Shown here: one piece after another, positions 1-56,470 of the stretch
Position numbering within the stretch: position 1 is the stretch's first letter
How the letters are laid out: every line of letters begins with the position of its first letter
Assembly (NCBI GenBank): GCA_000004985.1
Contig: GG738925.1
Source of the DNA: Naegleria gruberi
Taxonomy: Eukaryota
Reading direction: 5' to 3' (one strand)
Length of the DNA: 64,000 bases
Position numbers and translations under genes: made by a program
The notes under the pieces: generated by a model
What the model was told of the DNA's origin: nothing
Seen by the model: the letters and a program-made list of their open reading frames with translations, nothing else
The model's database searches: none

Positions 1-403
1 CATTCAATTTAATAATTTGTAAAGCTTGTCGTATAACTAACTCTGTTTCGTCCAATTCAATTCGTTCATTTAAATAAATATTCACACGATCCACAGTGAT
101 TATTCTATTATTCGATTCATTTCCCTCATCACATGGCGTATCTAAAATTTCAATTTTTAAATAATTTTTAATTTCCTTCTGATTAATATTATTCATTTTC
201 CTATTCAAATATTCGACAATATCCGCTCCTCTTGTTTCCATCATGAAATTCAAATAATCATCATCCGATTTGATCAGAGCACAATATTGATTAGATATTA
301 TTTGCAAGATAACCTTCTCATTAAATAAATTACACAATAGCATTTTGCACTCCGAACCATTTCTTTGAATCGCAAAATCCTGCCCCTCATCATTCGAAAG
401 CAT
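1..403 (-). CDS. partial hypothetical protein (ORF runs off window start; 3' end of gene not in window)
   Basis: Reverse-complement reading from an ATG near 403 is open for >130 codons down to position 1 (MLSNDEGQDFAIQRNGSECKMLLCNLFNEKVILQIISNQYCALIKSDDDYLNFMMETRGADIVEYLNRK...). It is absent from the supplied ORF track, presumably because no stop falls inside the window. No domain recognised. Confidence 0.3.
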   Translation of the reverse strand, partial: MLSNDEGQDFAIQRNGSECKMLLCNLFNEKVILQIISNQYCALIKSDDDYLNFMMETRGADIVEYLNRKMNNINQKEIKNYLKIEILDTPCDEGNESNNRIITVDRVNIYLNERIELDETELVIRQALQIIKLN

Positions 404-840
404 TTTTTTCTGATTTCGACTTTTAAAAAAATGCCTTTACATGACCGCCCTCCTGATCCAATAAATTGTCTGCAGCTGACTAACAGGATTCTTGTGTTAG
501 AACAAGCAGTCGATTCATATCGGATTGAAAATATTCGTCTTCAAAAATACATGGAAACTATGCAAAAGATTTACGACAAAATAATGTTTAATCCGAGTTT
601 GTACAAGACAAAGATGTAAAGGTTAAAGTTGATAATATTAATCAAGAAGATACTTCTACCACTAACATTTCTACTGATTCATTTAAAAAACCTACTTCAG
701 AAATCCAAAATATTAAGTCAACTCCCCAAAATAGAAATCAACAAATTCATTCCATTACTAGTAATATTAAACCAAAATATGAATGTAGTAAGAACCCTAT
801 TGAGCAAAATACCAAACTACAACTTACTCCATATTTGGAT

Positions 841-2070
841 ATGGTGAAGTATCACCCTATAAAAGCTCAACCAAGTATCAAACAAACTATAGCAAAACAA
901 ATCAAAATGAAACGCTCAATTTCATTCTATGGTAAAAAACCAGTCAAGCAAAATAAGAAATTCGATTTGACACATTCACTTAATATTATCTGCTATGAAA
1001 GAATTAATAACAAATTCATGGAACAAATAATGGACATCTTTGGGGAATTTGCCACCATTAAAATAAGACCCCAAACTAGTAATGTCATTAATCTTCATTG
1101 CAATAGTAATGACAATTATATTCTTTGCAAAGATATGCTTGATAGTGTACACAATGATTTAATATTGAAATTCTTCCCATCACCTGCTGTATTCGAGCAT
1201 AGCTTGTACGCTCTAACTCACTCTACACACATATATTCACAACACATTGATATGATTAAATCACTAATCAAACACTCAGTTAATAACGATAATACTATAC
1301 TTATCTCCCAAATGTATACAAACCAATCACATGGTAAATATATAATTAGAGTTTCATACGAAAACGAAGATGTGTGCGAAGTTATTAGAAAGAAGCTTAA
1401 TTTAACTAATTACAAATCTGTTGAACAATTGCGTAATGAAACTCCTACTAATGTTTCAGAATGTTTATTTCCACCTACCTTTACAAACAAGGAAATCATC
1501 GATGGTGTTACTCGTGCATACGAACGCATTAAAAAAGATTTCAATACTAACCAATGCATGATAACTGAATCCAAAAACAAATCCAATACCACTACCTTTA
1601 AATTATGTAAAGTCGTCCATTCAAATATTGACGAAATGAATCTATTTATTGACAAGAAAATTGTTCTCAATACCAAACAAAACATTACTGATGGAACCAG
1701 TTACTGTTTCGTACCATCTATTAAACAATTAGATGAAATAATTGAAAGAAAACAAAAACAATATCCATTTCTAACTAACTCTAAATTACCGGAAGTAACT
1801 AATCCTATGATCAATCCTATACAATCTAACGATAATACCAGTTCAACCACTAATTCTGTAGTTACTCCTACTATTAATACAACAACCAATCTATTTGAAA
1901 CTAGACTATCTAATATTGAAACTGAACTGCGTGATTTTAAGAAAGCATTAGCTGATACAATGGAACTTATTGACAAAATCTCCCATTATATAAATAATAG
2001 TACTAATAATTCTATTATGCAAGATGATGAAGAATCAAAAAGCTCATCATCTTGTACTCTTTCTAAATGA
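841..2070 (+). CDS. LINE ORF1 protein (nucleic-acid-binding/chaperone-type ORF1, C-terminal coiled coil)
   Basis: First ATG at 841 (the track ORF begins at an alternative TTG at 835, and the frame is open back to about 592). Ends with TGA that overlaps the ORF2 ATG. C-terminal heptad-like region ETRLSNIETELRDFKKALADTMELIDK. Position and size are typical of a LINE ORF1. Confidence 0.6.
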   Translation: MVKYHPIKAQPSIKQTIAKQIKMKRSISFYGKKPVKQNKKFDLTHSLNIICYERINNKFMEQIMDIFGEFATIKIRPQTSNVINLHCNSNDNYILCKDMLDSVHNDLILKFFPSPAVFEHSLYALTHSTHIYSQHIDMIKSLIKHSVNNDNTILISQMYTNQSHGKYIIRVSYENEDVCEVIRKKLNLTNYKSVEQLRNETPTNVSECLFPPTFTNKEIIDGVTRAYERIKKDFNTNQCMITESKNKSNTTTFKLCKVVHSNIDEMNLFIDKKIVLNTKQNITDGTSYCFVPSIKQLDEIIERKQKQYPFLTNSKLPEVTNPMINPIQSNDNTSSTTNSVVTPTINTTTNLFETRLSNIETELRDFKKALADTMELIDKISHYINNSTNNSIMQDDEESKSSSSCTLSK

Positions 2071-5000
2071 GTAATTATAGTAATTTACGACTAGCGTGTT
2101 ACAATGTAAACGGCCTGTATAAACATGCTAGTAAGAAATCGGTTACACCAGAAGTGAAATCAATGTGTCTTCATCATAAAATACACATGATTTCGTTAAC
2201 CGAAACTCATTTAAATACTCCTGATCTAGAATATAAAGTTAAAAATTCAGGAACAGGCTATATATTATTTAACTCCTTAATGAATACAACGAAAGGAAAA
2301 AAAGGGACGGCTGTTATGCACTTCCTTAACAACCCTCACAAGAGAAATATTACTAATATCAATCTAATTCCAGGTGTTCTTCAATGGACACGATTCGAAA
2401 GCAAAGGTATACCAATTAATATTTTCACTCCATATCTTAGTGGAAGAGTTGATGATAAAGAAAATGATGTTGAAGCCATGAACAGTATAACAAATGCAGT
2501 ACTGACATGTAGAGATGAACATGTCATAATTAATGGAGATCTTAATATCAATACCATTAATCCTTCAAACGGTAGAGATAAAGAATGGTGCTGGCTATTT
2601 AATCTACTCCAACTAACAGAATATAAGACTAATAATAAGACTTACATTAGAAGACAACAGAATAGAATCACCACTTCAAGATTAGACCACATTTTCGTGT
2701 CTAAAGATATTAAGGTTATCAAAGAAGAACTCCTTCCACCGCTCACAAGTAATGATCACATCCCTTTTTACATTGATATTGAATTCAAATCACATTTAAA
2801 TTGGAGATCATATATTGGTAAGAAGAAAAGAGAAGAAATGATCAAAGAGATAAATACGTCAAATGCCAATACATTTCAAGAATTAAATGCAGAAATACAA
2901 AACAACATTGCAAAATATGGAACCAAAGTTGACAGACTTGGTGGTAGCATTATTTCCTCCATATTTAAAGGTAAAATTCGTAAATTAGAAAATAAGATTA
3001 TGGGTAAATTAGAAGACCCAAATGTTGGACTTAATGAAATATCAGAACTACAAACAATTCTTAAAGAGACTCACATCCAATCATGTAAAGAAATCAAAGA
3101 ACAATTAACTGACAAATATAACAATAGTCACGCCTCCCACATGTATCAATTTGATAGAAAACTGCATTCTAAAGAAATTATCTGGAAAGAATTGCCATTT
3201 GGAGAACAAGAAATTTTAGATTATTTTTCCAAAAAGTTTACAACCTCCAATCAAACACCAACCTTTATGCCAAGTCCATCCACTATCACTTCAGGTCCTA
3301 GAGATATAGGTCGGATTTCATATAGAGATGTAAAAGAAACCATTAAAAGAATGAAATCGAATACACCAGGACAAGACGAAATTTCATTAGATATCATCAA
3401 GGGCTTAAAATTAGAGAAATTAGCTTTAATAGTTGAAGAGTTTAACAAATGTTTAACACAAGGAGATATCCCCCAAGAATGGAAACACGGTTGGGTTAAA
3501 CTGATTCCAAAGCGAGAAGTTAAAACATTAGGAGATATTAGACCCATCACAATACTACCAATATTTTATAGAATCCTTTTCAATTTAATCGCCCACAAAT
3601 TATGTGAATGGGCTAGCTCTCAGATTAATATGAGACAACAGGCCTTCATAAATAATAGAAATACAATGAACCATGGAATAGTACTTTCCTCCCTGGCCTT
3701 GAAAACTAGACGAAGAACATTTATATTAGTCAACCTTGACATTGAAGGTGCCTACGACGCAGTGGAGATGCCGGTTATTAGGATGGCCCTTAATCATTGT
3801 AAATTCCCAACACCACTAACTGATTTTATAATTAATGCATACAGCAATCACAGTTTACAATTAGAAATTGACAAACATCTATCAAATAACTTCACAAAAA
3901 CACGAGGAATTCCTCAAGGTTGCCCATTAGCACCTCTTATTTACGATTGTATTACACAACTCATAATAGACAAAGCAATAGACCAATGGCAACTACCAAT
4001 AGAACCATCTGAATTGAATGCAAACGAAATTGGTCTTTGTTGTTTCGCTGACGATATGAATATAGTATGCGACAGATTCACAAATTATAATGGAAGACTA
4101 GATAACATCGACGACTGGTTATCTCAATTGCTTTTCAAATTAAATGCAAAAAAGTCAATTGCCACTCTCCTTCCCACAAAAAGCAAAATCATACCAAAAA
4201 TCAAACAAGTGCCAATTCCCATTCAGAAAAATCTTAGAGTTCTCGGACACTACCCTTGGGAAGATAAATTGGTCAAAGAAGATATTGAAAGCAAGATAGC
4301 TAAATTCAATGAATCACTGAAATATTTCCCAATACTCAAACTTCAACCCCATAATTTAAGACAAGTCCTTCATGCTAAAGTGATTAGTTTATTTACACAT
4401 CTATCCAAACTTAATGTCATTCCTCCATCACTGGTATCAAGAATAGATATTTGCATTAGAAATGTACTCAGAACAAAGTTAAAACTAGACAGAACCACCA
4501 AAACAGCTTTTTTCCACCTACCATTAGAAGAAGGTGGACTCGGTGTTCCCTCAATTGAAGAATTTACAGACAGACTTAATTTAAGAACTCTCTCCTTAAT
4601 AGCAAATTCCAATAACAAGTTAGTTCAGAAAGCTTTTAAATTTGGAATTAGTCATACCAATGATAATAGTAATAACATTTTCATTCAATGGATGTCAATA
4701 CTTCAGAAATATAATTTAGATTTCAAAAAGAATCATACCAAATTCAGATTAAAGAAAGTGAATGAAACCAATAGATGCTTTATTATCCATACAGACGGAT
4801 CCAAGCTTGCAGGTAAAACAGGTATGGGTATTAATATATATGAATCCGGTGGAAGGTTATCACCTTGTAAAAGCCTTTCACTCCGTATCAATAATGAATA
4901 CTCTAATAATGTTGCAGAAATAGGAGCAATTATCACTGCAATGAAACTACTTCCAAATGGAACAACCGCTAGAATACACACAGATAGCAAAGTTGCAATA

Positions 5001-5795
5001 GATGTCCTATCCAGAAAATACAAAGGAAACTTTCTCCCTTTCAAAACTGAATTTTTCAATATCCAAAAAGAAAAGAATATTTCAGTTTATATAATCAAAG
5101 TTAAAGGACATGAAGATAAGGAAAATATAATAGTAGATCGCCTTGCGAAAGATGGAACTGAAAGAGATAAGATCTTTGATATCAAATCCTTACTAACCAA
5201 CCAATATTTACTTATGAAAAACGATATTGTGATCTTTGATTGCAAAAGAATGACTGTAAATCGCCAACTTAAGGAGATGCACGAAGCAATTGATAGTAAT
5301 CCCAACTTTATTCCAAACCAAAGCTGGTCATCAATTAATGTAGCCTACCTCAAGTCACGACTGTCACCTAAAACCAAATATCAAATTTGGCGAAACGCTT
5401 CAAATTCTCATATCAAATATACACAGAAGAAAGATGAATTGAATCCAACCTGCTCAGATTGTAATTGTCCCTCAAATTTAGAACATTACATACATGAATG
5501 CCCCAGACTAGACAATCAAAGAAGATATTGTCAAAATAGATTAACAGAAATACTTGATAGACCTGAGTGTTCACTCTCCCCTATCCAAGAAATTCCTTTC
5601 CAATACTCATATGTGCTATATTTCCATCACTCAGGCATAACCTTTTTTGAGAATGAATATATAGATAAGATCCCCAACCATAACGTCTTAAAGAAATGGC
5701 CAGAGATCCAAGCTGCTATTTCCAAATTTATTGGAAGAGCCTTCCTTATTTATCAAATTGATTCAAAACCTATTTACAAACGAAGTGAGAAATAG
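2067..5795 (+). CDS. LINE ORF2 polyprotein: apurinic-type endonuclease + reverse transcriptase + RNase H + C-terminal CCHC zinc knuckle
   Basis: N-terminal APE/EEP motifs (LRLACYNVNGL..., MISLTETHL). RT motifs (IRPITILPIFYRILFNLIAHKL; NLDIEGAYDAV; GIPQGCPLAPLIYD; CCFADDMNIVC = FADD box). RNase H (IHTDGSK...GMGI, TDSKVAIDVL, VKGHEDKENIIVDRLAKDG). Cys/His motif CSDCNCPSNLEHYIHECPRL. 1,242 codons uninterrupted. Confidence 0.9.
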   Translation: MSNYSNLRLACYNVNGLYKHASKKSVTPEVKSMCLHHKIHMISLTETHLNTPDLEYKVKNSGTGYILFNSLMNTTKGKKGTAVMHFLNNPHKRNITNINLIPGVLQWTRFESKGIPINIFTPYLSGRVDDKENDVEAMNSITNAVLTCRDEHVIINGDLNINTINPSNGRDKEWCWLFNLLQLTEYKTNNKTYIRRQQNRITTSRLDHIFVSKDIKVIKEELLPPLTSNDHIPFYIDIEFKSHLNWRSYIGKKKREEMIKEINTSNANTFQELNAEIQNNIAKYGTKVDRLGGSIISSIFKGKIRKLENKIMGKLEDPNVGLNEISELQTILKETHIQSCKEIKEQLTDKYNNSHASHMYQFDRKLHSKEIIWKELPFGEQEILDYFSKKFTTSNQTPTFMPSPSTITSGPRDIGRISYRDVKETIKRMKSNTPGQDEISLDIIKGLKLEKLALIVEEFNKCLTQGDIPQEWKHGWVKLIPKREVKTLGDIRPITILPIFYRILFNLIAHKLCEWASSQINMRQQAFINNRNTMNHGIVLSSLALKTRRRTFILVNLDIEGAYDAVEMPVIRMALNHCKFPTPLTDFIINAYSNHSLQLEIDKHLSNNFTKTRGIPQGCPLAPLIYDCITQLIIDKAIDQWQLPIEPSELNANEIGLCCFADDMNIVCDRFTNYNGRLDNIDDWLSQLLFKLNAKKSIATLLPTKSKIIPKIKQVPIPIQKNLRVLGHYPWEDKLVKEDIESKIAKFNESLKYFPILKLQPHNLRQVLHAKVISLFTHLSKLNVIPPSLVSRIDICIRNVLRTKLKLDRTTKTAFFHLPLEEGGLGVPSIEEFTDRLNLRTLSLIANSNNKLVQKAFKFGISHTNDNSNNIFIQWMSILQKYNLDFKKNHTKFRLKKVNETNRCFIIHTDGSKLAGKTGMGINIYESGGRLSPCKSLSLRINNEYSNNVAEIGAIITAMKLLPNGTTARIHTDSKVAIDVLSRKYKGNFLPFKTEFFNIQKEKNISVYIIKVKGHEDKENIIVDRLAKDGTERDKIFDIKSLLTNQYLLMKNDIVIFDCKRMTVNRQLKEMHEAIDSNPNFIPNQSWSSINVAYLKSRLSPKTKYQIWRNASNSHIKYTQKKDELNPTCSDCNCPSNLEHYIHECPRLDNQRRYCQNRLTEILDRPECSLSPIQEIPFQYSYVLYFHHSGITFFENEYIDKIPNHNVLKKWPEIQAAISKFIGRAFLIYQIDSKPIYKRSEK

Positions 5796-6281
5796 AATCT
5801 GAATAGATTCGCCAAAATGCATTAAAAGATTTTTTTCTGATTTCTTTTTTTCACTGGAAAGTGGTGTTGATTGTTTCTTGTTAGAACTAATAAGAGATTG
5901 CATACTGATGAAGTGAACATTCAAAACTCTTCAAAAAATAACATAAGAGTTCTTAATATATCAAGCGTATTGATATGATTCTTAGAGCAATAATACACAA
6001 TGATAATACTAATTCCACCATTTTAATAAGTGAAAGTTGGGCATGATTTATTTCAATCAATTCATTTTCCTTAATCTAACAACTTTCCAATTTTCTTTTT
6101 TGAAAATTGAATTAGAAACAATATTTTGCATTCCAACGTACAACCTCCATGTACGAATGCTCAAAATGCGCTCAACATTCACTTGAAGGTTTAAGCGTAC
6201 ATCATCTCCCTCAGAGTGTAGGAGAAGGGAAGAAGAAGGAAAACAGGTGTCGCACTCCTAAATTTTCATCCTTAAAAAAAA

Positions 6282-9200
6282 ATGATCAAGAAGAAGACAA
6301 GTGCTAGCAGTAAAAATCTGAGCGAGATGGCTACTGCTGCTGTTCAGAGTAATCAGTCTTCTTCATCGTCATCTTCATCATCAAATGCAGCAAATTTAGT
6401 ACCACCAAGTAGTAGTAGTGGTTTGAAGCACAAGTATCATTTTAAATTTGTGGTTAGTGCTTTGGAAATCTTACCCGAAAAACCAACAACATCAAATATT
6501 AATAACAATCACATTTCATCAAAGGAAGTCAAAAAAACAACATCTATTGGTACCTTCTTTAAACAATTCACTGAATCACCAAAGATTCCTAGAACAGCAT
6601 TATTGGAATGGAAACGAAATTCAAGAAAGAGAGGAAAACTTCCTGTTTGTAGATTTCAAAAATCCATTGATCAAAACAAACCAGACCACTTCATCTTTTA
6701 TACAAGGGATGAAAAGGCTTTCGAATTCAATACAAGATTGACAACAACCAGTAAGTAGTAGTAATTTTAAATGGTTACAGCAACAACCATCATCCTCTTC
6801 ATCATCTTCTAAAATAGCTTCTACTTCCTACGGTTACAAGGATAAATTTTTGAGAATGTCTCTTGAGCAATTGCAGGATGAAGCATTTACTGCTTCCCCA
6901 GCTTCTAAACTGCTCACATCAAAGAAGAGAATTTGTGAGGAGGAAATTAATTTGGCAGAAGCTGTATCAATGAATGCAATGGAAAGAAGTCTTGTTTTAA
7001 TGGAAATTACACAAAATGGCCTTTCTCAAATCGAGTCAACAATTGCTGCTAAAAAGCTAAAAAAGAAAACAGGAATCTTTCCGATTAAGTTAGGAGGAGA
7101 TGACCAAGACCAGGAAATTGTGGCCTATCTCGTTTTGAGATATACTATCAGTTGTTCAACAAACGACACCCAACCTAACCTATCAACAAGTATGGTATCT
7201 AATGACATCACTGATGATACTGAAGTGAGTATGACAGAACCAGAAGTTTCCGATGATGAAGAGGATGAAGAACCATTCAAAAGTCCTAGAATTCTAGGAA
7301 CAACTCCTCGTTCAGAGTACAAGGATAATGTAAATACACCTTTCGGATCACCAAGCCAACAAGAAATTTTCCAAAAGCCAGTGGTGAATGAAGTTGAAAA
7401 CAATTCACTTCAAAAAACACAAAATCAATCAAGTAACAATTTGGAATCAATTACTCAAACAAATGGTAGCACTGAAAAGAAAATTGAAACGGAACAACCA
7501 AGTATCATTGTAGAATCAAACACGAATAATACTATTGTGGAAAATGTCCAAGAATCAACAGTTAGTTCCGAAAAGATTGAAAACCCACTTGCAAAGACTG
7601 AAGATGAGGGATCTAACTTTTTCCTTCTCGATGAAGAGGAAGAGCAGGAGGAACCAAAGCAACTGGAACAATCTCCAGTTATGATAATGGAAATGCCAAC
7701 AATGACAACAACAGAGGAACAAAAAATCGACCCTTCTCAACCACCATCACAAGAGCCTCAACAAGAACCAGAAGAAATTGAGGTTGTAGAACAAGTACCT
7801 GAATCAACTAGTCTTCCTATTGAAGAGAATGTCACAGAGACTGTCACACCTCAACAAGAAGAACCAGAAAAACCACAAATCACCCCTTCCCAAGTTGAAG
7901 TTGAGTCACCAAAGAAAGATAGTATGATTGTAGTGCAGAAGGAACCTGAAGAATCTCAATCATTCTTAGATTTGAGTGATGAAGAAGAAGAAGAAGAAAC
8001 CAAACCTGAACAAATTAACGAGCCAATTAGTGTAAATACAACTCAATCAATCAGTTCAACAGTAGAGGAAGAGCCTTTGAAGGAAGAACCAGGACTTGAT
8101 GAAAAACCTCTCACTATTGAGACATCAGAAAAGCAAAGTGAAGAAGAGTCTGATTTTGATATCATTCTTTCTCCATACGAAGAGTCAAATTCTACTAACG
8201 ATGCTAACCTGGCCACTAATGTAGTACATAAACCAGAAGAGCAAAAACCAGTCGAAGAAACTCAACCTATTGCAGATATCAAAACTTCTGATATTGTCAA
8301 TAAGGACTCGACAGAAAAGTTGCTCACCCCTGAAGATCATCATGATCATTCCTATTCTAGCGATGAAGATATGTTTACTCCTGTATATAGTTCCAACAAT
8401 ATTTACGAATCAAAAATTCCAGATGTTGAAGAGCCAACAATCCCAAAACCTAACAATCTTCACACCAAGATAATTGAAAGTGTTCTAAATGAAAACAAGG
8501 CAAACGAAGAGACTGAATCACTTACATCTTCAGAATACAATGAGATACAAAGAGACTATAGCGAAGCACTTATAGTACTTGATTTACAAAAGCAAAAAAT
8601 TATTGAGCTGGAAAACTATTCAAATTCATTCCATCCATTGGTTGTTTCATTGATTTGGGGTTTAATTTGCTCCTTGTTGTACTCTGTTTCACAAGTAGAG
8701 GTTTCAGCCATTAGACCAATTTTGGTTGCTACATTCTACACTATAGTAGTATACTTTGGTGTACAATTAACTCGTGCCATGAAGTTCTATAGCTATGGAA
8801 CTCATTTGACTAATTACCTTAAGGAAATAAGATTTTTGAAAAAATTAGAATCCATGCCAAAGAAGGATATTGGAACACTTGGCAACTATCTCAAGAAATA
8901 CATTACTAGCGAAGACTTTAGATTTTTGGATGATATTTTCAGATCAGCATCTTGGGGAGCCCTCTTTGCTCTAGTAGCTCTCATCTTGAAAGCTCTATTC
9001 AGTTCGGGTGACGAACAACCAAATCTTGGAGATGATAATGCTATTTACAGATTTTTCGTTAGTGGAATTCTTTACAAGTGTTTGTACAGATCTGTAACAG
9101 AGGAATTATTTGAAAGGTTATTCTGTTTGCTGCTTTCTGTTTTTATCTTTAATGAATTCAATTTGACCATCAAGATCAAGTACATTATTGACAAGTATAC

Positions 9201-9513
9201 AAATCCAAAGCATTCAGATCAGTTCAGAAACTTGGCCGATTTTGAAAAACAACAACCAAAGCCAATCAAATCTGGTAAGGCTGTCCTATCCCTACCTCAT
9301 TATTCAAGTGTTATTCTTGCCACCATTATTTCTACAATATTTTCTATTGGACAACCGGCACGTCACACATACACAACAGATAGCTTTATTTTTGACAAGT
9401 TATTAGGATCTTTTGTTTATTCTTACATGTTTGTTGTACAAGAGAAGGTTGAATTGTGTATGGTTGCCCACTTTACCAAGAATTTGATTGATGTAATTTT
9501 CAGTTATTATTAA
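6282..9513 (+). CDS. Ser/Glu-rich acidic protein with C-terminal multi-pass membrane domain resembling CPBP/Abi (CAAX-protease-like) family; 2 exons
   Basis: Exon 1 runs 6282 to about 6750. It ends at a GTAAGT donor (ccaGTAAGTag), with the acceptor ...aaaatAG at about 6817. Exon 2 runs about 6818..9513 and is in frame with the 887-aa track ORF (intron about 67 nt). Long acidic disordered middle region. The C-terminal roughly 300 aa are hydrophobic, with EExxxR-like (TEELFER) and HxxxN-like (HFTKN) motifs reminiscent of Rce1/Abi intramembrane proteases. Confidence 0.5.
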
Positions 9514-10260
9514 ATATCTTTTTAATTGAAACTTTAATTTGAAACATCATAACGCACCAATGTGAAATCCCTAAACTCCGTATTTGCACTTACTTGAAGT
9601 TTACTATCATTTGGTTCCTCTGCTTTTGTGCTTATTTCCAAACTTTCACTAACAGTATACTTTCCAAACTGAGATTCGTCCTTAATCAATTGCAACAATT
9701 GTAAATCTCATCCTTGATCTTTACATTCCCCAAAAAAAGCCCTCACTCTCTCCTTATTGCACTTGTAAACAGTTCATTAACTTATTTTTCAACCCTCAAC
9801 AAGCACTTTAAGAACAAAGCCAAACATACGATATTGAGTCCTCCCGTTCATTTACAACATCATACAGAAACATGAATGAACTCCACAACAACTCAAAAAT
9901 ATTGTGCGTTTAGATTGTTGGGCCCTGCAACCTAAATCAACAAAATCCAACTGCGCAGGAATCCGGCTTGCCAAACAGTTTAAGCAAAACACAAGAAAAA
10001 AAGCTTCATCTCTTGAATCTGCTGTTTTATCACCTTTTTCTAAATTGAAAAAAATTACGGTCACTCCCCGGAGAAGAGACTTGTGAAGAGTTTCCATCAA
10101 GTTATTGTTGTTATTGCTATCATTCAAGGCATCACTTTGTCCAGTATTATATTATTTATAAGAAGTTTTCATTTTCGAAAAATCTCTTTTGATAATCATT
10201 TTGTTATCTTCATCATCCTTAATTTATCAACTATCTAGTATTGTTATTATCTGTTCCGAT

Positions 10261-12043
10261 ATGTCTACTGGTCATAGTCCAACGAATTCATCAGAGATTG
10301 ATTTGGCTGAGGCTGATCTCCATCCGATTGCATGTTTTGCTTGTAGAAAGGGACACAGGTAGGTTAACTTTACACAATAATTGATTTATTATATTCATTC
10401 TCATCATCATCTTCATTATCATCACAAATAATAGAAAATGTGATCGTCACCTTCCAGGATGCAATGAATGTAAATTGAAAGGAAAAGAATGTAAATATCC
10501 AGAACCTATGAAGAGAGGTCCTCCTAAAAACATGCAAGTCTCGTATAATAATCAACAACCAATTAATCAACAAGTACAAGGATCATCACCATCATTGTCA
10601 CCAAAGAATAGACACAGTCCGTATGGTAGTACCTCGCTCAGTCCAGAAAATGTACCAAACCAACAACCAATTAATCATCAAATTGTTGATTTGTACTTTG
10701 ATATTGTTAGTATTGGTTGTCCAGTTCTTCAAAGAACAACAATGTTGGGTATTTGCTCAAAGCAACCACAGGAAAATTCACAAGCAGAGGAAGTGGCAAT
10801 GCTCTATGCAATTCAAGCTAACTGTTATCAAAGACTAGGTAGAAAAGAAGAAGGAAAGGAAGCATTTAGAATGTCCAGAAAGTATCTTTCCGACGTGTTT
10901 GATTTGTTGGATAATTTTCATATTGCTGCTGCATTCCTGCATCTCTCACTTTACTGTTTGGGAGAAGGTGAACACAATCAATCTAAATATTATTTGAATA
11001 GTGTTCAATTTTTCATTAATCAAAATAAGGAACGTTTGAGAGATAATGATTCATTTGTGAATTTGTCTAAGCTTGTACTATATGTTCAATTGTTACTTGA
11101 GGAAGAAGAAGCATTAACAGCCTTGGATATAGAAATTCAAAAGGAATCTCAAGGTCTCCAACAAAATCTAGTAATTACTGAGAGATATACATTGCAAGTG
11201 TATCACTTTAAGAAAATGATTGATCTATTCCTATTTGTAACACAGAATGTATCTGATGGTTTGTGTGGAAAATCGATACCACAAGCTCCACCTGTATCAC
11301 CAAACGATATTGTAAAAACACACTTGGTCATGGCAAACACTCAGGCAATGCAATTCAATAGATATCACCTCGAAAATTCACCTGCAGCTAAGAGCATTAC
11401 CAAGTTGATGCATCTTTTGATTATTGATGGATTAAGATTGGGAATTTTGTCAAGATCTCCAGCTCAATCAGATGAGGCAATCATAGAAACAGCTAACAGA
11501 ATCACAGGATATACCACATTATCATACTTTCCTTATCTCCCTTCACATATTTATAACGTAATTAACAACGCAGCAAGAATACATCTTGCCCTCTACAAAC
11601 AAATTCAAAGAGGAGAAAGACCAGATAATGGTATTGACTATTACGACATTTTAAAGAAGGATCAGAGAGCATTGCTTCTCCTTTCAGAAAGATATTCAAT
11701 GGTAGAAAAGAGAGCTAAACCAATTTTGCAACAATTGAGCGAGGAAATTCTCAAGAGAGAACGACAAGTTGTACACATGCAACACATGTTTTCTGGCAAC
11801 ACAGGGCACGTATCAGCTGCTAATTTGCCAGCATATTTCCCTGAGGATAGAGAAGCTCTTCAAAGAATTGAACAAATTACTTCTCAAAATCCATCACTAA
11901 CACAACTTCCACCATTCCCTGAAACAATGCAAAAAGATGATCCATTCGCTGCTGTAATAGAAGACGGATTTGATTTTGATATTTTCTCTAATGTTCCACA
12001 AACTGAAAACTTTTATACTGACCCTCAGTTGCAACTGTTGTAA
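10261..12043 (+). CDS. Zn(II)2Cys6 (GAL4-type) fungal zinc-cluster transcription factor; 2 exons
   Basis: Exon 1 is 10261 to about 10358 (MSTGHSPTNSSEIDLAEADLHPIACFACRKGHR), ending at a GTAGGT donor. The intron runs to ...aaatAG at about 10434. Exon 2 (about 10435..12043) continues KCDRHLPGCNECKLKGKEC, completing the CX2CX6CX6CX2CX6C signature. The downstream 500 aa resemble a fungal TF middle-homology region. Confidence 0.8.
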
Positions 12044-12135
12044 ATAAATTCGAATAAATTTTAAGACATTAACTTTCAATTCACACCTTACAATGGAAAT
12101 TGTAAACAAAACTGTTATTTAGGAGTTGAACATCT

Positions 12136-37508: not shown

Positions 37509-37608
37509 ACCAAAATAAATATTATAATTGGAAATAACAAATGGAACGTTGCTTTTAATTAAAATTGCCAAACCCCATTTTATCAAAATTTCATGGCTCG
37601 CCACGTTA

Positions 37609-37679
37609 CCGTCTCGGGAGGAATCGAACCTCCGTCAATGGATTCAAAGTCCACTATGCTACCATTACACCACGAGACG
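37609..37679 (-). tRNA. tRNA-Gln (anticodon UUG)
   Basis: The minus strand reads CGTCTCG-TG-GTGTAATGGTAGCAT-AGTGGA-CTTTGAA-TCCAT-TGAC-GGAGGTTCGATTCCTCC-CGAGACG-G. This gives a 7-bp acceptor stem, a D-loop (GGTGTAATGG) closely matching eukaryotic tRNA-Gln, an anticodon loop CU-UUG-AA, and a T-arm GGTTCGATTCC. Confidence 0.8.
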
Positions 37680-39220
37680 AGCACATTCATGAAAAATGAT
37701 AAATACATAGATTAAGTATAATTAGATTTAAGGTTTTTAACTAACTATCATTAACACTAAGCAATATTACTAGCTTCTTTCCCAACACAAAATGTCAGCA
37801 AACTCGGTAGACCCCTTGGAAAAACAACACATGTAGAACAAGAACAACCCAGTAAAGAACCCAAATTAGATACAACAACAATAGACTCTTTCACGTGGGT
37901 AATGGGAAGTGATTCTTCAGAATTGTTCGATCATTTCGACGCAATAGAAAACGAGTTAATGCATTTGAACTCTTTTTCTTCTGATATTGTTGTAGTTCCC
38001 TATCAATTCTATTTCTTGGAAAGAATGTTTGATATTTCAACAATTCTACCCTAGATCAAACTCTAAATCATTTTTGGCTCTGCTTATATCTAACTTGTGG
38101 TTTCTACTGACAATATAATCAATGTTTTTCCAAAGCAAGCTCTAGTTGTATCATTTGGACTGTGTGTATTAGAAGCTTGAATTTTTTGTAACCTGTAAAT
38201 TCGAGTAATATCAACACCTCCAGTTTCTCCTGCTCCAACGTGGAATGCTCTAAATTTAATCATTCATTCCTTTTATATCAAGAATAGTAACTCTCTTCTT
38301 TTGACACCAATGGGAAAGAAGAGCCAAAATGTTGTCTAAACGAGTCTCTTTTGTCAATAGCGTTGCCTTACTCAACAAATCATAAACAATTCGGAAAATA
38401 ATAATAGTATCTAATGGAGAGATAGGTGCCCTTACATTTAGAATGATTCTTGACCTGCTTAACCCAAAAGTTGACTGTACAATTCTTAATGATTGAAATT
38501 CCTTGAGTACCCAAATCAATATTGTGGAGAGTTTAATAGATTTTATTAAGATCAGATTGATAAAATATTATGATCTTAAAGATTATCAGGAATGGTTGCA
38601 TCATTAACCTTTAGACCTAAATCAAAATTAGCAAGAAATTCATAAAAATTAACATTGTTAGCAATAATCAGATGCAAATTTTAGTTATCTTTACAAATTC
38701 CCAATACCTACTAGAATCGGTAAACCAATTTTTATAATATTTATTTTAAAAAAAAATGAAAAGAGCAAGTTCTTCTTCGGAGCAAGCTTCATCATCACAA
38801 TTAAATCAATATCGGATAGGTTATATTACAGAATTACTTATGGATATTCATCATCAATACAAAGATTCCGATACGCATGGAAAAAAGACAATCATCAATA
38901 CATTTATTAATCCCTTTCGGCAGGAAGAGTTGCAGGAAATATGTAAAGGATTTATGAGCGATATTGCTACATTGAAGAAAATTAGTGATGGAAATAGTAC
39001 ATCAAGTAAAATTGTTGATCCTCCACAAAATAAGAAGGCAAAAAATTAAATTCTCCAAAGGATGATAACCTTGTATTTAATTTAATTAGGATTTGGTATA
39101 AGAGAGACCAGACCATATTTGTAATTTGATTTGATTGGAAATCCGAAAATCTGACATATCTCTACAGAATATTTATATGGAAATATTGCAATAAACAACA
39201 CGTTGCAAATATTCTAATAT

Positions 39221-54910: not shown

Positions 54911-56470
54911 CTACCTTAGGCAAATAATGGACACATCTTTGGGGCATTTGACACTTATTTCAAGAGCATTTTGAGAATTGATTTTGTAAAATTTACACCA
55001 ACCCAACCCGAAATGACTCAAATCCAATTGAATAAATCCAAGAATCGTATCAATGAAAAAGCTACTTTCACACAGCAGCGTTTCACCATTCGAAAGGAAT
55101 TGTAAAGTGCCCTCAAAATGTCCAGTAATCACAAGTGGATTCACATAACTTAGTCTGTACATAATTTTTGGCCGTGTTTTAGTGAGCTTCAAAGCATCTC
55201 GACTAAATTCATAAATTTTGGAGAGAAATTTCAATTTCACTTTCTTAACGAGATGGATTTCTTTTTTGTGGAAGGGAGTAATGGCGCCAAATCCTTCAAG
55301 TGGCAGATAATCATTCCTTGGCATTTTCGAATAGGATTCGTAGACAGCTGTTTCAAATCGGTAAATGAATCTTTTTTCATCAAAGATTGATTTCTTTTTC
55401 TTTGCTCTTCCAATCCAAGTATTTTTCTTCACTTCCAATCCAATTGTTGCATTTCCTCTGCAATTAGTTACCATATTGTGATAGTTTAGAGCTAGCGATG
55501 GATGGAATTTGGACACTAGCTGACATGCCGAATAGAATGAAATGTTACTGAGACGTATTCTTTGAGCTTTCAGAGGGGGTTTAAGATAATTGTTGAAATC
55601 CACATAATACCTCATTGCATCAATCTTTTCATAATTCACATTTTCAACATTGTAAATGGCATTTCCAAATATTACTTTGAAAAACATGAATAATATCTTG
55701 GAATTTGATAGAATGGCACCTCTTCCAGTCTTGATTGAGTAGGAAATCTTTTTCTCTTTCCAATATTTAAATAACTTATCAGTTCCACCATAAATTTCAA
55801 AAACTCCATTCAGCAATCCATTAGAAACCTTTTCATCTGAAAATGTAATCAATTCTGTTAGAAATCCTTGCTTAAACCTCGTTGATATGTTATCTGGTTT
55901 GTCATATTTCCACTCAAGTGAACTATTCTCATTCCATCCTTTCAAATCAGATTTACAAATCAATTTCATTCTCAGAACAGCTTGTTTAGAAATCCAAATT
56001 TCCAATCTGTGAATTAACATATTTGTCTTGATTGGTTCCCAACACATTACCTCACATTCCACTGGCATTTGAATTACAAATTCTGCTTCAATAGTCAACC
56101 CCAGAGACTCCTCAATTTTAACTCTTTTCAATTGTGAATCCAAAATTTCATTTCTAAATTCCTTCTTTAATTTGCCGACAAGATTTTCGACATTTTCAAT
56201 TTGTGGTGGATGTCTCTTGATGAATAGCAATATTTCATCCAGTGTTATTAATTTGGATCGGGTGATGCTATTCCACAATGAACCAAGAAAGGAATCTTGA
56301 AATTGTTTCTTTAATTCAATCGTGAATGTGTCATAATCGATAATTTGATTTTTAGCATCTTTGCTAATTGATGATGATGCCTCCGATAGTGCAAATTTGC
56401 TAATAACTGATGTGAATATTATTGTAAACAATTCTACAAGTCTATTGTGATTACAACAGAAGAAACCCAT
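54911..56470 (-). CDS. hypothetical protein (about 520 aa)
   Basis: Long ORF. First ATG near 56470 (MGFFCCNHNRLVELF...), and the track start is GTG. No recognised domain. Confidence 0.35.
   Translation of the reverse strand: MGFFCCNHNRLVELFTIIFTSVISKFALSEASSSISKDAKNQIIDYDTFTIELKKQFQDSFLGSLWNSITRSKLITLDEILLFIKRHPPQIENVENLVGKLKKEFRNEILDSQLKRVKIEESLGLTIEAEFVIQMPVECEVMCWEPIKTNMLIHRLEIWISKQAVLRMKLICKSDLKGWNENSSLEWKYDKPDNISTRFKQGFLTELITFSDEKVSNGLLNGVFEIYGGTDKLFKYWKEKKISYSIKTGRGAILSNSKILFMFFKVIFGNAIYNVENVNYEKIDAMRYYVDFNNYLKPPLKAQRIRLSNISFYSACQLVSKFHPSLALNYHNMVTNCRGNATIGLEVKKNTWIGRAKKKKSIFDEKRFIYRFETAVYESYSKMPRNDYLPLEGFGAITPFHKKEIHLVKKVKLKFLSKIYEFSRDALKLTKTRPKIMYRLSYVNPLVITGHFEGTLQFLSNGETLLCESSFFIDTILGFIQLDLSHFGLGWCKFYKINSQNALEISVKCPKDVSIICLR

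Follow-up and report, generated by a model that had tools for sequence, protein, structure and literature searches.

Known LINEs and the Naegleria element

Long interspersed nuclear elements (LINEs; non-long-terminal-repeat retrotransposons) with target-specific insertion are known from multicopy RNA genes, telomeres, and microsatellites. Among them, R1, TRAS1, and SART1 make a sequence-specific first-strand nick with an apurinic/apyrimidinic endonuclease (APE)-type enzyme, as is proposed for the element described here, and their targets are multicopy repeats (ribosomal DNA, telomeric), whereas the target considered here is a short motif at the start codons of single-copy protein genes. The element is an APE-type LINE of 5,411 bp on the plus strand, at positions 418-5828 of a 64-kb stretch of Naegleria gruberi DNA (the whole stretch analyzed, referred to as the window). 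We put the probability at about 80% that this region is a recently inserted, full-length copy of a family seen only in Heterolobosea, whose relatives target host start codons. The searchable literature contained no description of the structure or targeting of Naegleria LINEs and no report of a LINE at start codons; in the genome of N. fowleri, LINEs account for 1.85% (PMC6831594).

The described element closest in behavior is Zorro3, an L1-clade LINE of Candida albicans (PMC1965478). Both elements have two open reading frames (ORFs), an APE endonuclease, a reverse transcriptase (RT), a C-terminal Cys motif, and a very short 5′ untranslated region (UTR) with an A tract just 5′ of the ORF1 ATG, and Zorro3 likewise enters homopolymer A/T tracts, often near RNA polymerase II promoters (PMC1965478). 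Zorro3 differs in its poly(A) tail, in non-overlapping ORFs with a poly-A tract between them, and in co-oriented insertion into poly-A tracts without sizeable duplications, and no RNase H domain is mentioned for it (PMC1965478). The Naegleria element, in contrast, has an RNase H domain, is tailless, joins its ORFs by an ATGA overlap, is flanked by target-site duplications (TSDs) of 16-17 bp in its family and relatives, and lies in the opposite orientation in the A tract, exactly at the ATG. An identification of the element as Zorro3 itself, guessed from GC content, was ruled out by a 100% match to N. gruberi proteins.

Human LINE-1 (L1) also has an ORF1 and an ORF2, its endonuclease is the closest solved structure, and its RT is homologous (E 4e-16). 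Further points of likeness are a CX3CX7HX4C-like motif, target-primed reverse transcription, TSDs of similar length, and A/T-rich nick sites; L1 differs in its long 5′ UTR promoter, 63-nt inter-ORF spacer, poly(A) tail, lack of RNase H, and TTTT/AA nick. The Ingi/L1Tc elements of trypanosomatids reside in hosts of the same supergroup (Discoba). As in the Naegleria element, their APE, RT, and RNase H domains come in this order, with a zinc-binding motif after them. They differ in having a single ORF, a 5′ Pr77 promoter/hepatitis delta virus (HDV)-like ribozyme, a poly(A) tail, and C2H2 fingers (PMC1874656, PMC4035085). A search of 300-6100 in the Naegleria locus gave no match to any Rfam family, HDV-like ribozymes included.

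A recently inserted, full-length copy

The borders of the element follow from a perfect 16-bp direct repeat at 402-417 and 5829-5844 (Table 1), the sole terminal repeat found in a direct-repeat scan, in which inverted repeats were not scanned. Between the two TSD copies lie, from 5′ to 3′, a 13-nt 5′ UTR, ORF1, the ATGA junction, ORF2 with APE, RT, RNase H, and CCHC motifs, and a 33-nt 3′ UTR. An earlier note on this DNA, made from the letters alone, had recognized a LINE with this domain order, which is borne out by Pfam matches to RVT_1 and RNase_H and by a model of the endonuclease; its extent of 360-5900 gives way to the 418-5828 defined by the TSDs. Of the insertion marks looked for, the TSD is present and perfect, and a poly(A) tail was found at none of the six 3′ ends read, that of the window element included.

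The note's view that the insertion is recent is upheld by the identity of the TSD copies (16/16) and by a near-identical second copy on a different 99-kb scaffold of N. gruberi. The two copies differ at one of 546 residues in ORF1, their ORF2 gene models are identical at 812 of 813 residues, and protein identity to the sister copy thus exceeds 99.8% over comparable regions, which points to a very young family. Among the homologs of the downstream host gene there is no second copy from N. gruberi; this argues, without proving it, against the two LINE copies being alleles of a single locus. No further copy of the element occurs inside the window.

The same note had taken both ORFs, of 411 and 1,242 codons, to be uninterrupted. 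These ORFs exist (835..2070, 411 aa counted from a TTG, and 2067..5795, 1,242 aa, both on the plus strand and overlapping by ATGA at 2067-2070), and ORF2 is indeed uninterrupted, but ORF1 carries a 1-nt deletion after codon 53 of 546. Native ORF1 has 546 codons from ATG 431 and is uninterrupted in the sister copy, whose protein (P0020, EFC36307, 546 aa) was retrieved with the conceptually repaired window sequence. P0020 reads ...KIMFKSEFVQDK..., where the corresponding window DNA reads ATGTTTAATCCGAG; inserting a single A at 590/591 restores the 546-codon frame, after which A363V is the only difference from P0020. In a more distant relative on an unrelated Logan contig (L001), ORF1 is open without a break over 517 codons and begins at an ATG in the corresponding place. 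The frameshift had been placed at about 605-616 by a weak alignment with this relative, a position replaced by 590/591 after comparison with P0020. In the window copy as assembled, translation from the ORF1 start would end after 62 residues, and the 411-codon ORF is an out-of-frame remnant. The NCBI model of the window ORF1 (EFC36779, P0021) has 387 aa and begins at Met 907.

The missing base lies within a short A run, ORF2 and the TSDs are perfect, and the rest of ORF1 is one residue off the intact sister, all of which would fit a copy that is fully intact and autonomous and a frameshift that is a sequencing or assembly error. The assembled sequence is, however, TTTAATCC, and P0021 also starts downstream, consistent with a break in the deposited sequence, so that we consider such an error unlikely. 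A second alternative accepts the deletion and has it tolerated, either by a -1 shift in 592-619, where the two frames overlap by 28 nt, or by reinitiation at ATG 841 to give a functional ORF1p of 409 aa; the part of ORF1 conserved with L001 is downstream of 841. Against this, 592-619 has no slippery heptamer of the form X XXY YYZ, the continuous ORF1 of the sister copy and of L001 shows that frameshifting is not the normal expression mode of the family, and an N-terminal helix (residues 10-54, low-confidence model) would be lost. Programmed -1 frameshifting was rejected on the first two of these grounds, and a tolerated frameshift of either kind is hardly probable. With its ORF1 truncated, the window copy is probably not autonomous, contrary to the note; the family probably is, and the candidate for current activity would be the family and not this copy.

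Insertion on host start codons

Insertion sites were compared for every related element with both junctions readable, that is, the window element and three elements of N. fowleri (L002 from one family, L008 and L009 from a second; Table 1). In all four complete insertions, which represent three families and two species, the TSD of 16-17 bp begins with A-T(6-9) and is preceded by C; the target on the other strand is A(6-9)TG, and each element stands head-to-head on a host ATG. The TSD in the window begins with the AT of the ATG of a minus-strand host ORF (1-403), and the element lies head-to-head at the 5′ end of this ORF, not in its 3′ region as the note had supposed. At the three N. fowleri loci, the TSDs are perfect, and a minus-strand gene that was annotated independently has the junction CAT as its start codon; in the reconstructed empty sites, no in-frame ATG comes earlier than the junction ATG (3/3). 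Two more 3′ junctions, those of L001 and of the degenerate copy L003, adjoin T runs (T7-8).

An A-rich leader directly before the ATG is the normal start context in Naegleria. On both strands of the window, A(6-11)TG occurs at 21 sites, and at 15 of them an ORF of 100 codons or more begins; examples are at 6282, 31568, 33856, and 59290 on the plus strand and 24918, 33577, and 59149 on the minus strand. A preference for A(6+)TG would thus target start codons automatically.

The association with start codons might instead reflect chance or survivorship in a gene-dense genome and not the specificity of the endonuclease. Intergenic regions of Naegleria are short (divergent starts are 141-279 nt apart in the window), so that most random insertions would be purged. 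Selection does not explain single-nucleotide precision, however: all four TSDs have the AT of ATG and then T6-9, a motif with a background of about 2e-4 of positions (A-T7 in the window), the two additional 3′ junctions adjoin T runs, and three diverged families from two species are represented among the insertions. Survivorship or chance is therefore very unlikely in our judgment, and the junctions suggest that independent insertions share one target at nucleotide precision, in what is a small sample.

Several points weigh against the reading of the region as a young insertion from a start-codon-targeting family. The sample consists of four complete and two partial insertions and is not genome-wide. 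The reconstructed empty site of the window has an in-frame ATG 30 codons upstream, which means that this insertion could lie inside the host coding sequence and not at its start. No empty allele was retrieved, the nearest strain contig ending 160 bp short of the site, and scans of metagenomes for further copies or an empty site gave only relatives of 28-29% identity. The deletion in ORF1 could be an assembly error. The 3′ UTR of L008 and L009 has only 11 nt and is without the hairpin found in the window element, so that the hairpin is not a general recognition element. The promoter roles and the endonuclease specificity proposed below are read from sequence.

The strain contig mentioned above (L005; ENA metagenome contig, ERZ929261) comes from an N. 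gruberi-like strain and is 98.5% identical to window positions 6004-12051. Its break 160 bp downstream of the LINE is what one would expect of an assembly halted by a repeat or by a polymorphic insertion. Before insertion, the minus-strand host gene and the plus-strand gene at 6282 (A9TG) formed a divergent pair about 450 bp apart. On the 3′ side of each of the four insertions, the closest annotated gene or long ORF has plus-strand orientation, and the original promoter region consequently now faces the 3′ end of the LINE.

Table 1. Features of the LINE and its host site in the window, with the host genes and TSDs of three N. fowleri insertions (window positions unless a relative is named)
Feature	Position	Strand	Details
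Host ORF	1-403	-	At least 134 codons, runs off window edge; ATG at 403-401, A7 before it
5′ TSD copy	402-417		ATTTTTTTCTGATTTC; AT of host ATG plus 14 nt of host leader
5′ UTR	418-430	+	13 nt, GACTTTTAAAAAA; immediately 5′ of ORF1 ATG 431; similar 5′ ends in relatives
ORF1 N-terminal fragment	431-619	+	Frame 2; 53 authentic codons, 9 out-of-frame codons, stop 617-619
1-nt deletion	590/591	+	TTTAAATCC to TTTAATCC; one A missing, in short A run
ORF1 remainder	592-2070	+	Frame 1; includes 411-codon ORF 835-2070; first in-frame ATG 841
ATGA overlap	2067-2070	+	ORF1 stop/ORF2 start
ORF2	2067-5795	+	1,242 codons, uninterrupted
APE-type endonuclease	2088-2786	+	N 2100-2117, E 2196-2210, D-N 2535-2552, D 2679-2696, D-H 2748-2765
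Reverse transcriptase	3504-4250	+	Motif A 3732-3758, motif B 3906-3935, FADD 4044-4055
RNase H, PF00075 type	4779-5159	+	D-E-D-H-D complete
C-terminal CX2CX7HX4C	5451-5501	+	
3′ hairpin	5795-5810	+	6-bp, GAATCTGAATAGATTC; dG -5.3, z -2.1
3′ UTR	5796-5828	+	33 nt; hairpin and ATTAAA
ATTAAA signal	5821-5826	+	
3′ TSD copy	5829-5844		16/16 identical to 402-417
L002, N. fowleri, one family	Host TELO2-like gene 2343..5372	-	TSD ATTTTTTTTTGATATTA, 17 nt
L008, N. fowleri, second family	Host gene 2702..3371	-	TSD ATTTTTTTTGTTGTTC, 16 nt
L009, family of L008	Host Img2 gene 2803..3381	-	TSD ATTTTTTAGGAGGATG, 16 nt

Proposed insertion mechanism and its significance

In the insertion model proposed here, the junction sequences and gene positions are observed and the remainder is inferred. 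The endonuclease would nick the host sense strand within A(6-9)T^G, that is, in the Naegleria leader and start codon. The freed 3′-OH would then prime reverse transcription at the extreme end of the 3′ UTR, so that no poly(A) tract would be copied, and a second nick 16-17 nt away would give rise to the TSD, so that the host coding sequence would keep its ATG together with about 14 nt of leader. The T run 3′ of the element may, more speculatively, aid 3′-end formation just after the AATAAA or ATTAAA signal.

The ATG of the LINE and that of the host are 26-28 nt apart, compared with 141-279 nt for natural divergent starts in the window, a spacing from which we infer that the element must use an internal promoter. 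The host promoter would have been displaced by 5.4 kb, and the host gene probably relies on the LINE 5′ end for promoter activity, either antisense or bidirectional. That head-to-head insertions are tolerated is indicated by L002, an old, degenerate copy beside TELO2. Extended to the genus, the model would make Naegleria LINEs an undescribed target-specific class, in which the endonuclease reads A(6-9)TG, every new copy lands head-to-head on the ATG of a protein gene, the TSD regenerates this ATG with a short leader, and the 5′ end of the LINE serves as a compact bidirectional promoter for both element and host gene. We offer this extension tentatively, at somewhat less than even odds.

As first described, the locus was an ordinary young LINE in a protist genome, and both N. 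gruberi copies are already annotated as "predicted proteins". If the proposed targeting is true, recognition of the start-codon context of single-copy genes would be a new safe-haven solution in a gene-dense genome, with tolerated insertions adjoining TELO2 and a mitoribosomal protein gene. It raises the question of how a promoter functions with two divergent ATGs 27 nt apart, and it would offer an endonuclease with a defined preference, predicted to span 8-10 nt.

ORF1, ORF2, and their junction

The ATGA overlap, read in the earlier note as an arrangement for coupled translation, is also present in L008 and L009, with TTGA at that position in L001. Its conservation across about 50% protein divergence supports termination-reinitiation, by which ORF2 would be produced. 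In SART1, where an overlapping stop-start, UAAUG, couples ORF1 and ORF2, termination-reinitiation has been shown (PMC3894237).

ORF1 has no match in Pfam or the PDB, including a search of its profile against the PDB, and no similarity to L1 ORF1p was detected. Its 546 residues contain no CCHC knuckle on reading and no zinc-finger match in Pfam, and the single-sequence AlphaFold2 model is unusable, with a predicted local distance difference test (pLDDT) score of 36. The linker region of ORF1 at 665-696 matches 54921-54954 over 34 nt (88%), a match that is probably low-complexity coding sequence.

ORF2 matches RVT_1 (aa 480-728, E 2.8e-26) and RNase_H (aa 905-1031, E 6e-14) in Pfam, in which the APE matches alone are below threshold. 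The AlphaFold2 model of residues 1-248 (pLDDT 85.8) retrieves the human L1 endonuclease with Foldseek (E 1e-13, TM 0.74), and the TRAS1 endonuclease is also among its structural matches; on this model, the N-terminal APE endonuclease domain is confirmed. All catalytic motifs are present in ORF2 (Table 1). At 333 of 363 family-conserved positions, ORF2 has the conserved residue, and the 30 positions that differ all lie outside the catalytic motifs, in agreement with the note, which had found every motif that it recognized intact.

The window ORF2 matches EFC36780, a "predicted protein" of N. gruberi, with 100% identity. This NCBI model and that of the sister copy (EFC36306), each of 813 aa, begin at an internal Met and have the whole RT removed as a false intron, and a systematic mis-annotation of these LINEs in Naegleria gene sets is thereby flagged.

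Relatives and classification

Relatives of ORF2 with 42-56% identity are found in a second family of N. gruberi, in N. fowleri, and in environmental assemblies, and those of Willaertia magna have 27-28% identity. Outside Heterolobosea, there is a plateau of LINE RTs at 24-30% identity, without a family name among those looked up and made up mostly of environmental or read-assembly proteins, with two arthropod hypothetical proteins and one mislabeled "bacterium" entry. Among the closest relatives from outside the family, several have both RVT_1 and RNase_H as well.

Among PDB sequences, the best matches of the RT are R2 (E 9e-21) and human L1 (E 4e-16), about equally distant, and no clade was assigned for this reason. 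An RNase H downstream of the RT is also the arrangement of the I, Tad1, Ingi, LOA, and R1 group, a likeness of architecture only. The traits of the L1 clade (a Transposase_22 ORF1p with coiled coil, RNA recognition motif, and C-terminal domain, and a poly(A) tail) were not found in the element, nor were the gag-like CCHC knuckles in ORF1 of the I, R1, LOA, and Jockey types.

One N. fowleri family has at least 14 annotated fragments, and L002 and L003 are degenerate copies; no 5′-truncated copy with a verified junction was among the copies obtained. The second family includes L008 (VFQX01000066, 3388-8551), in which ORF2 is intact (1,217 codons) and ORF1 is in three pieces, and L009, which has 97.7% nucleotide identity to L008 and the opposite pattern of damage. 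This family is recent, yet neither sampled copy is intact.

Element ends and other observations

The 3′ hairpin with one flanking base on each side (18 nt, AGAATCTGAATAGATTCG) is identical in L001, a relative of 52% identity. A universal 3′ hairpin was considered and dropped, since the window element and L001 are identical here and the family of L008 and L009 is without it. The only tRNA gene in the window, tRNA-Gln (TTG) at 37608-37680 on the minus strand, is not associated with the element.

Two details concern the 5′ joining. In L008, an extra GA (3386-3387) separates the 5′ TSD from the element start shared with L009, and these two bases may be untemplated or cap-derived nucleotides. ATTTC precedes the element start both in the window (413-417) and in L001 (1-5), which may be coincidence or 5′-end microhomology.

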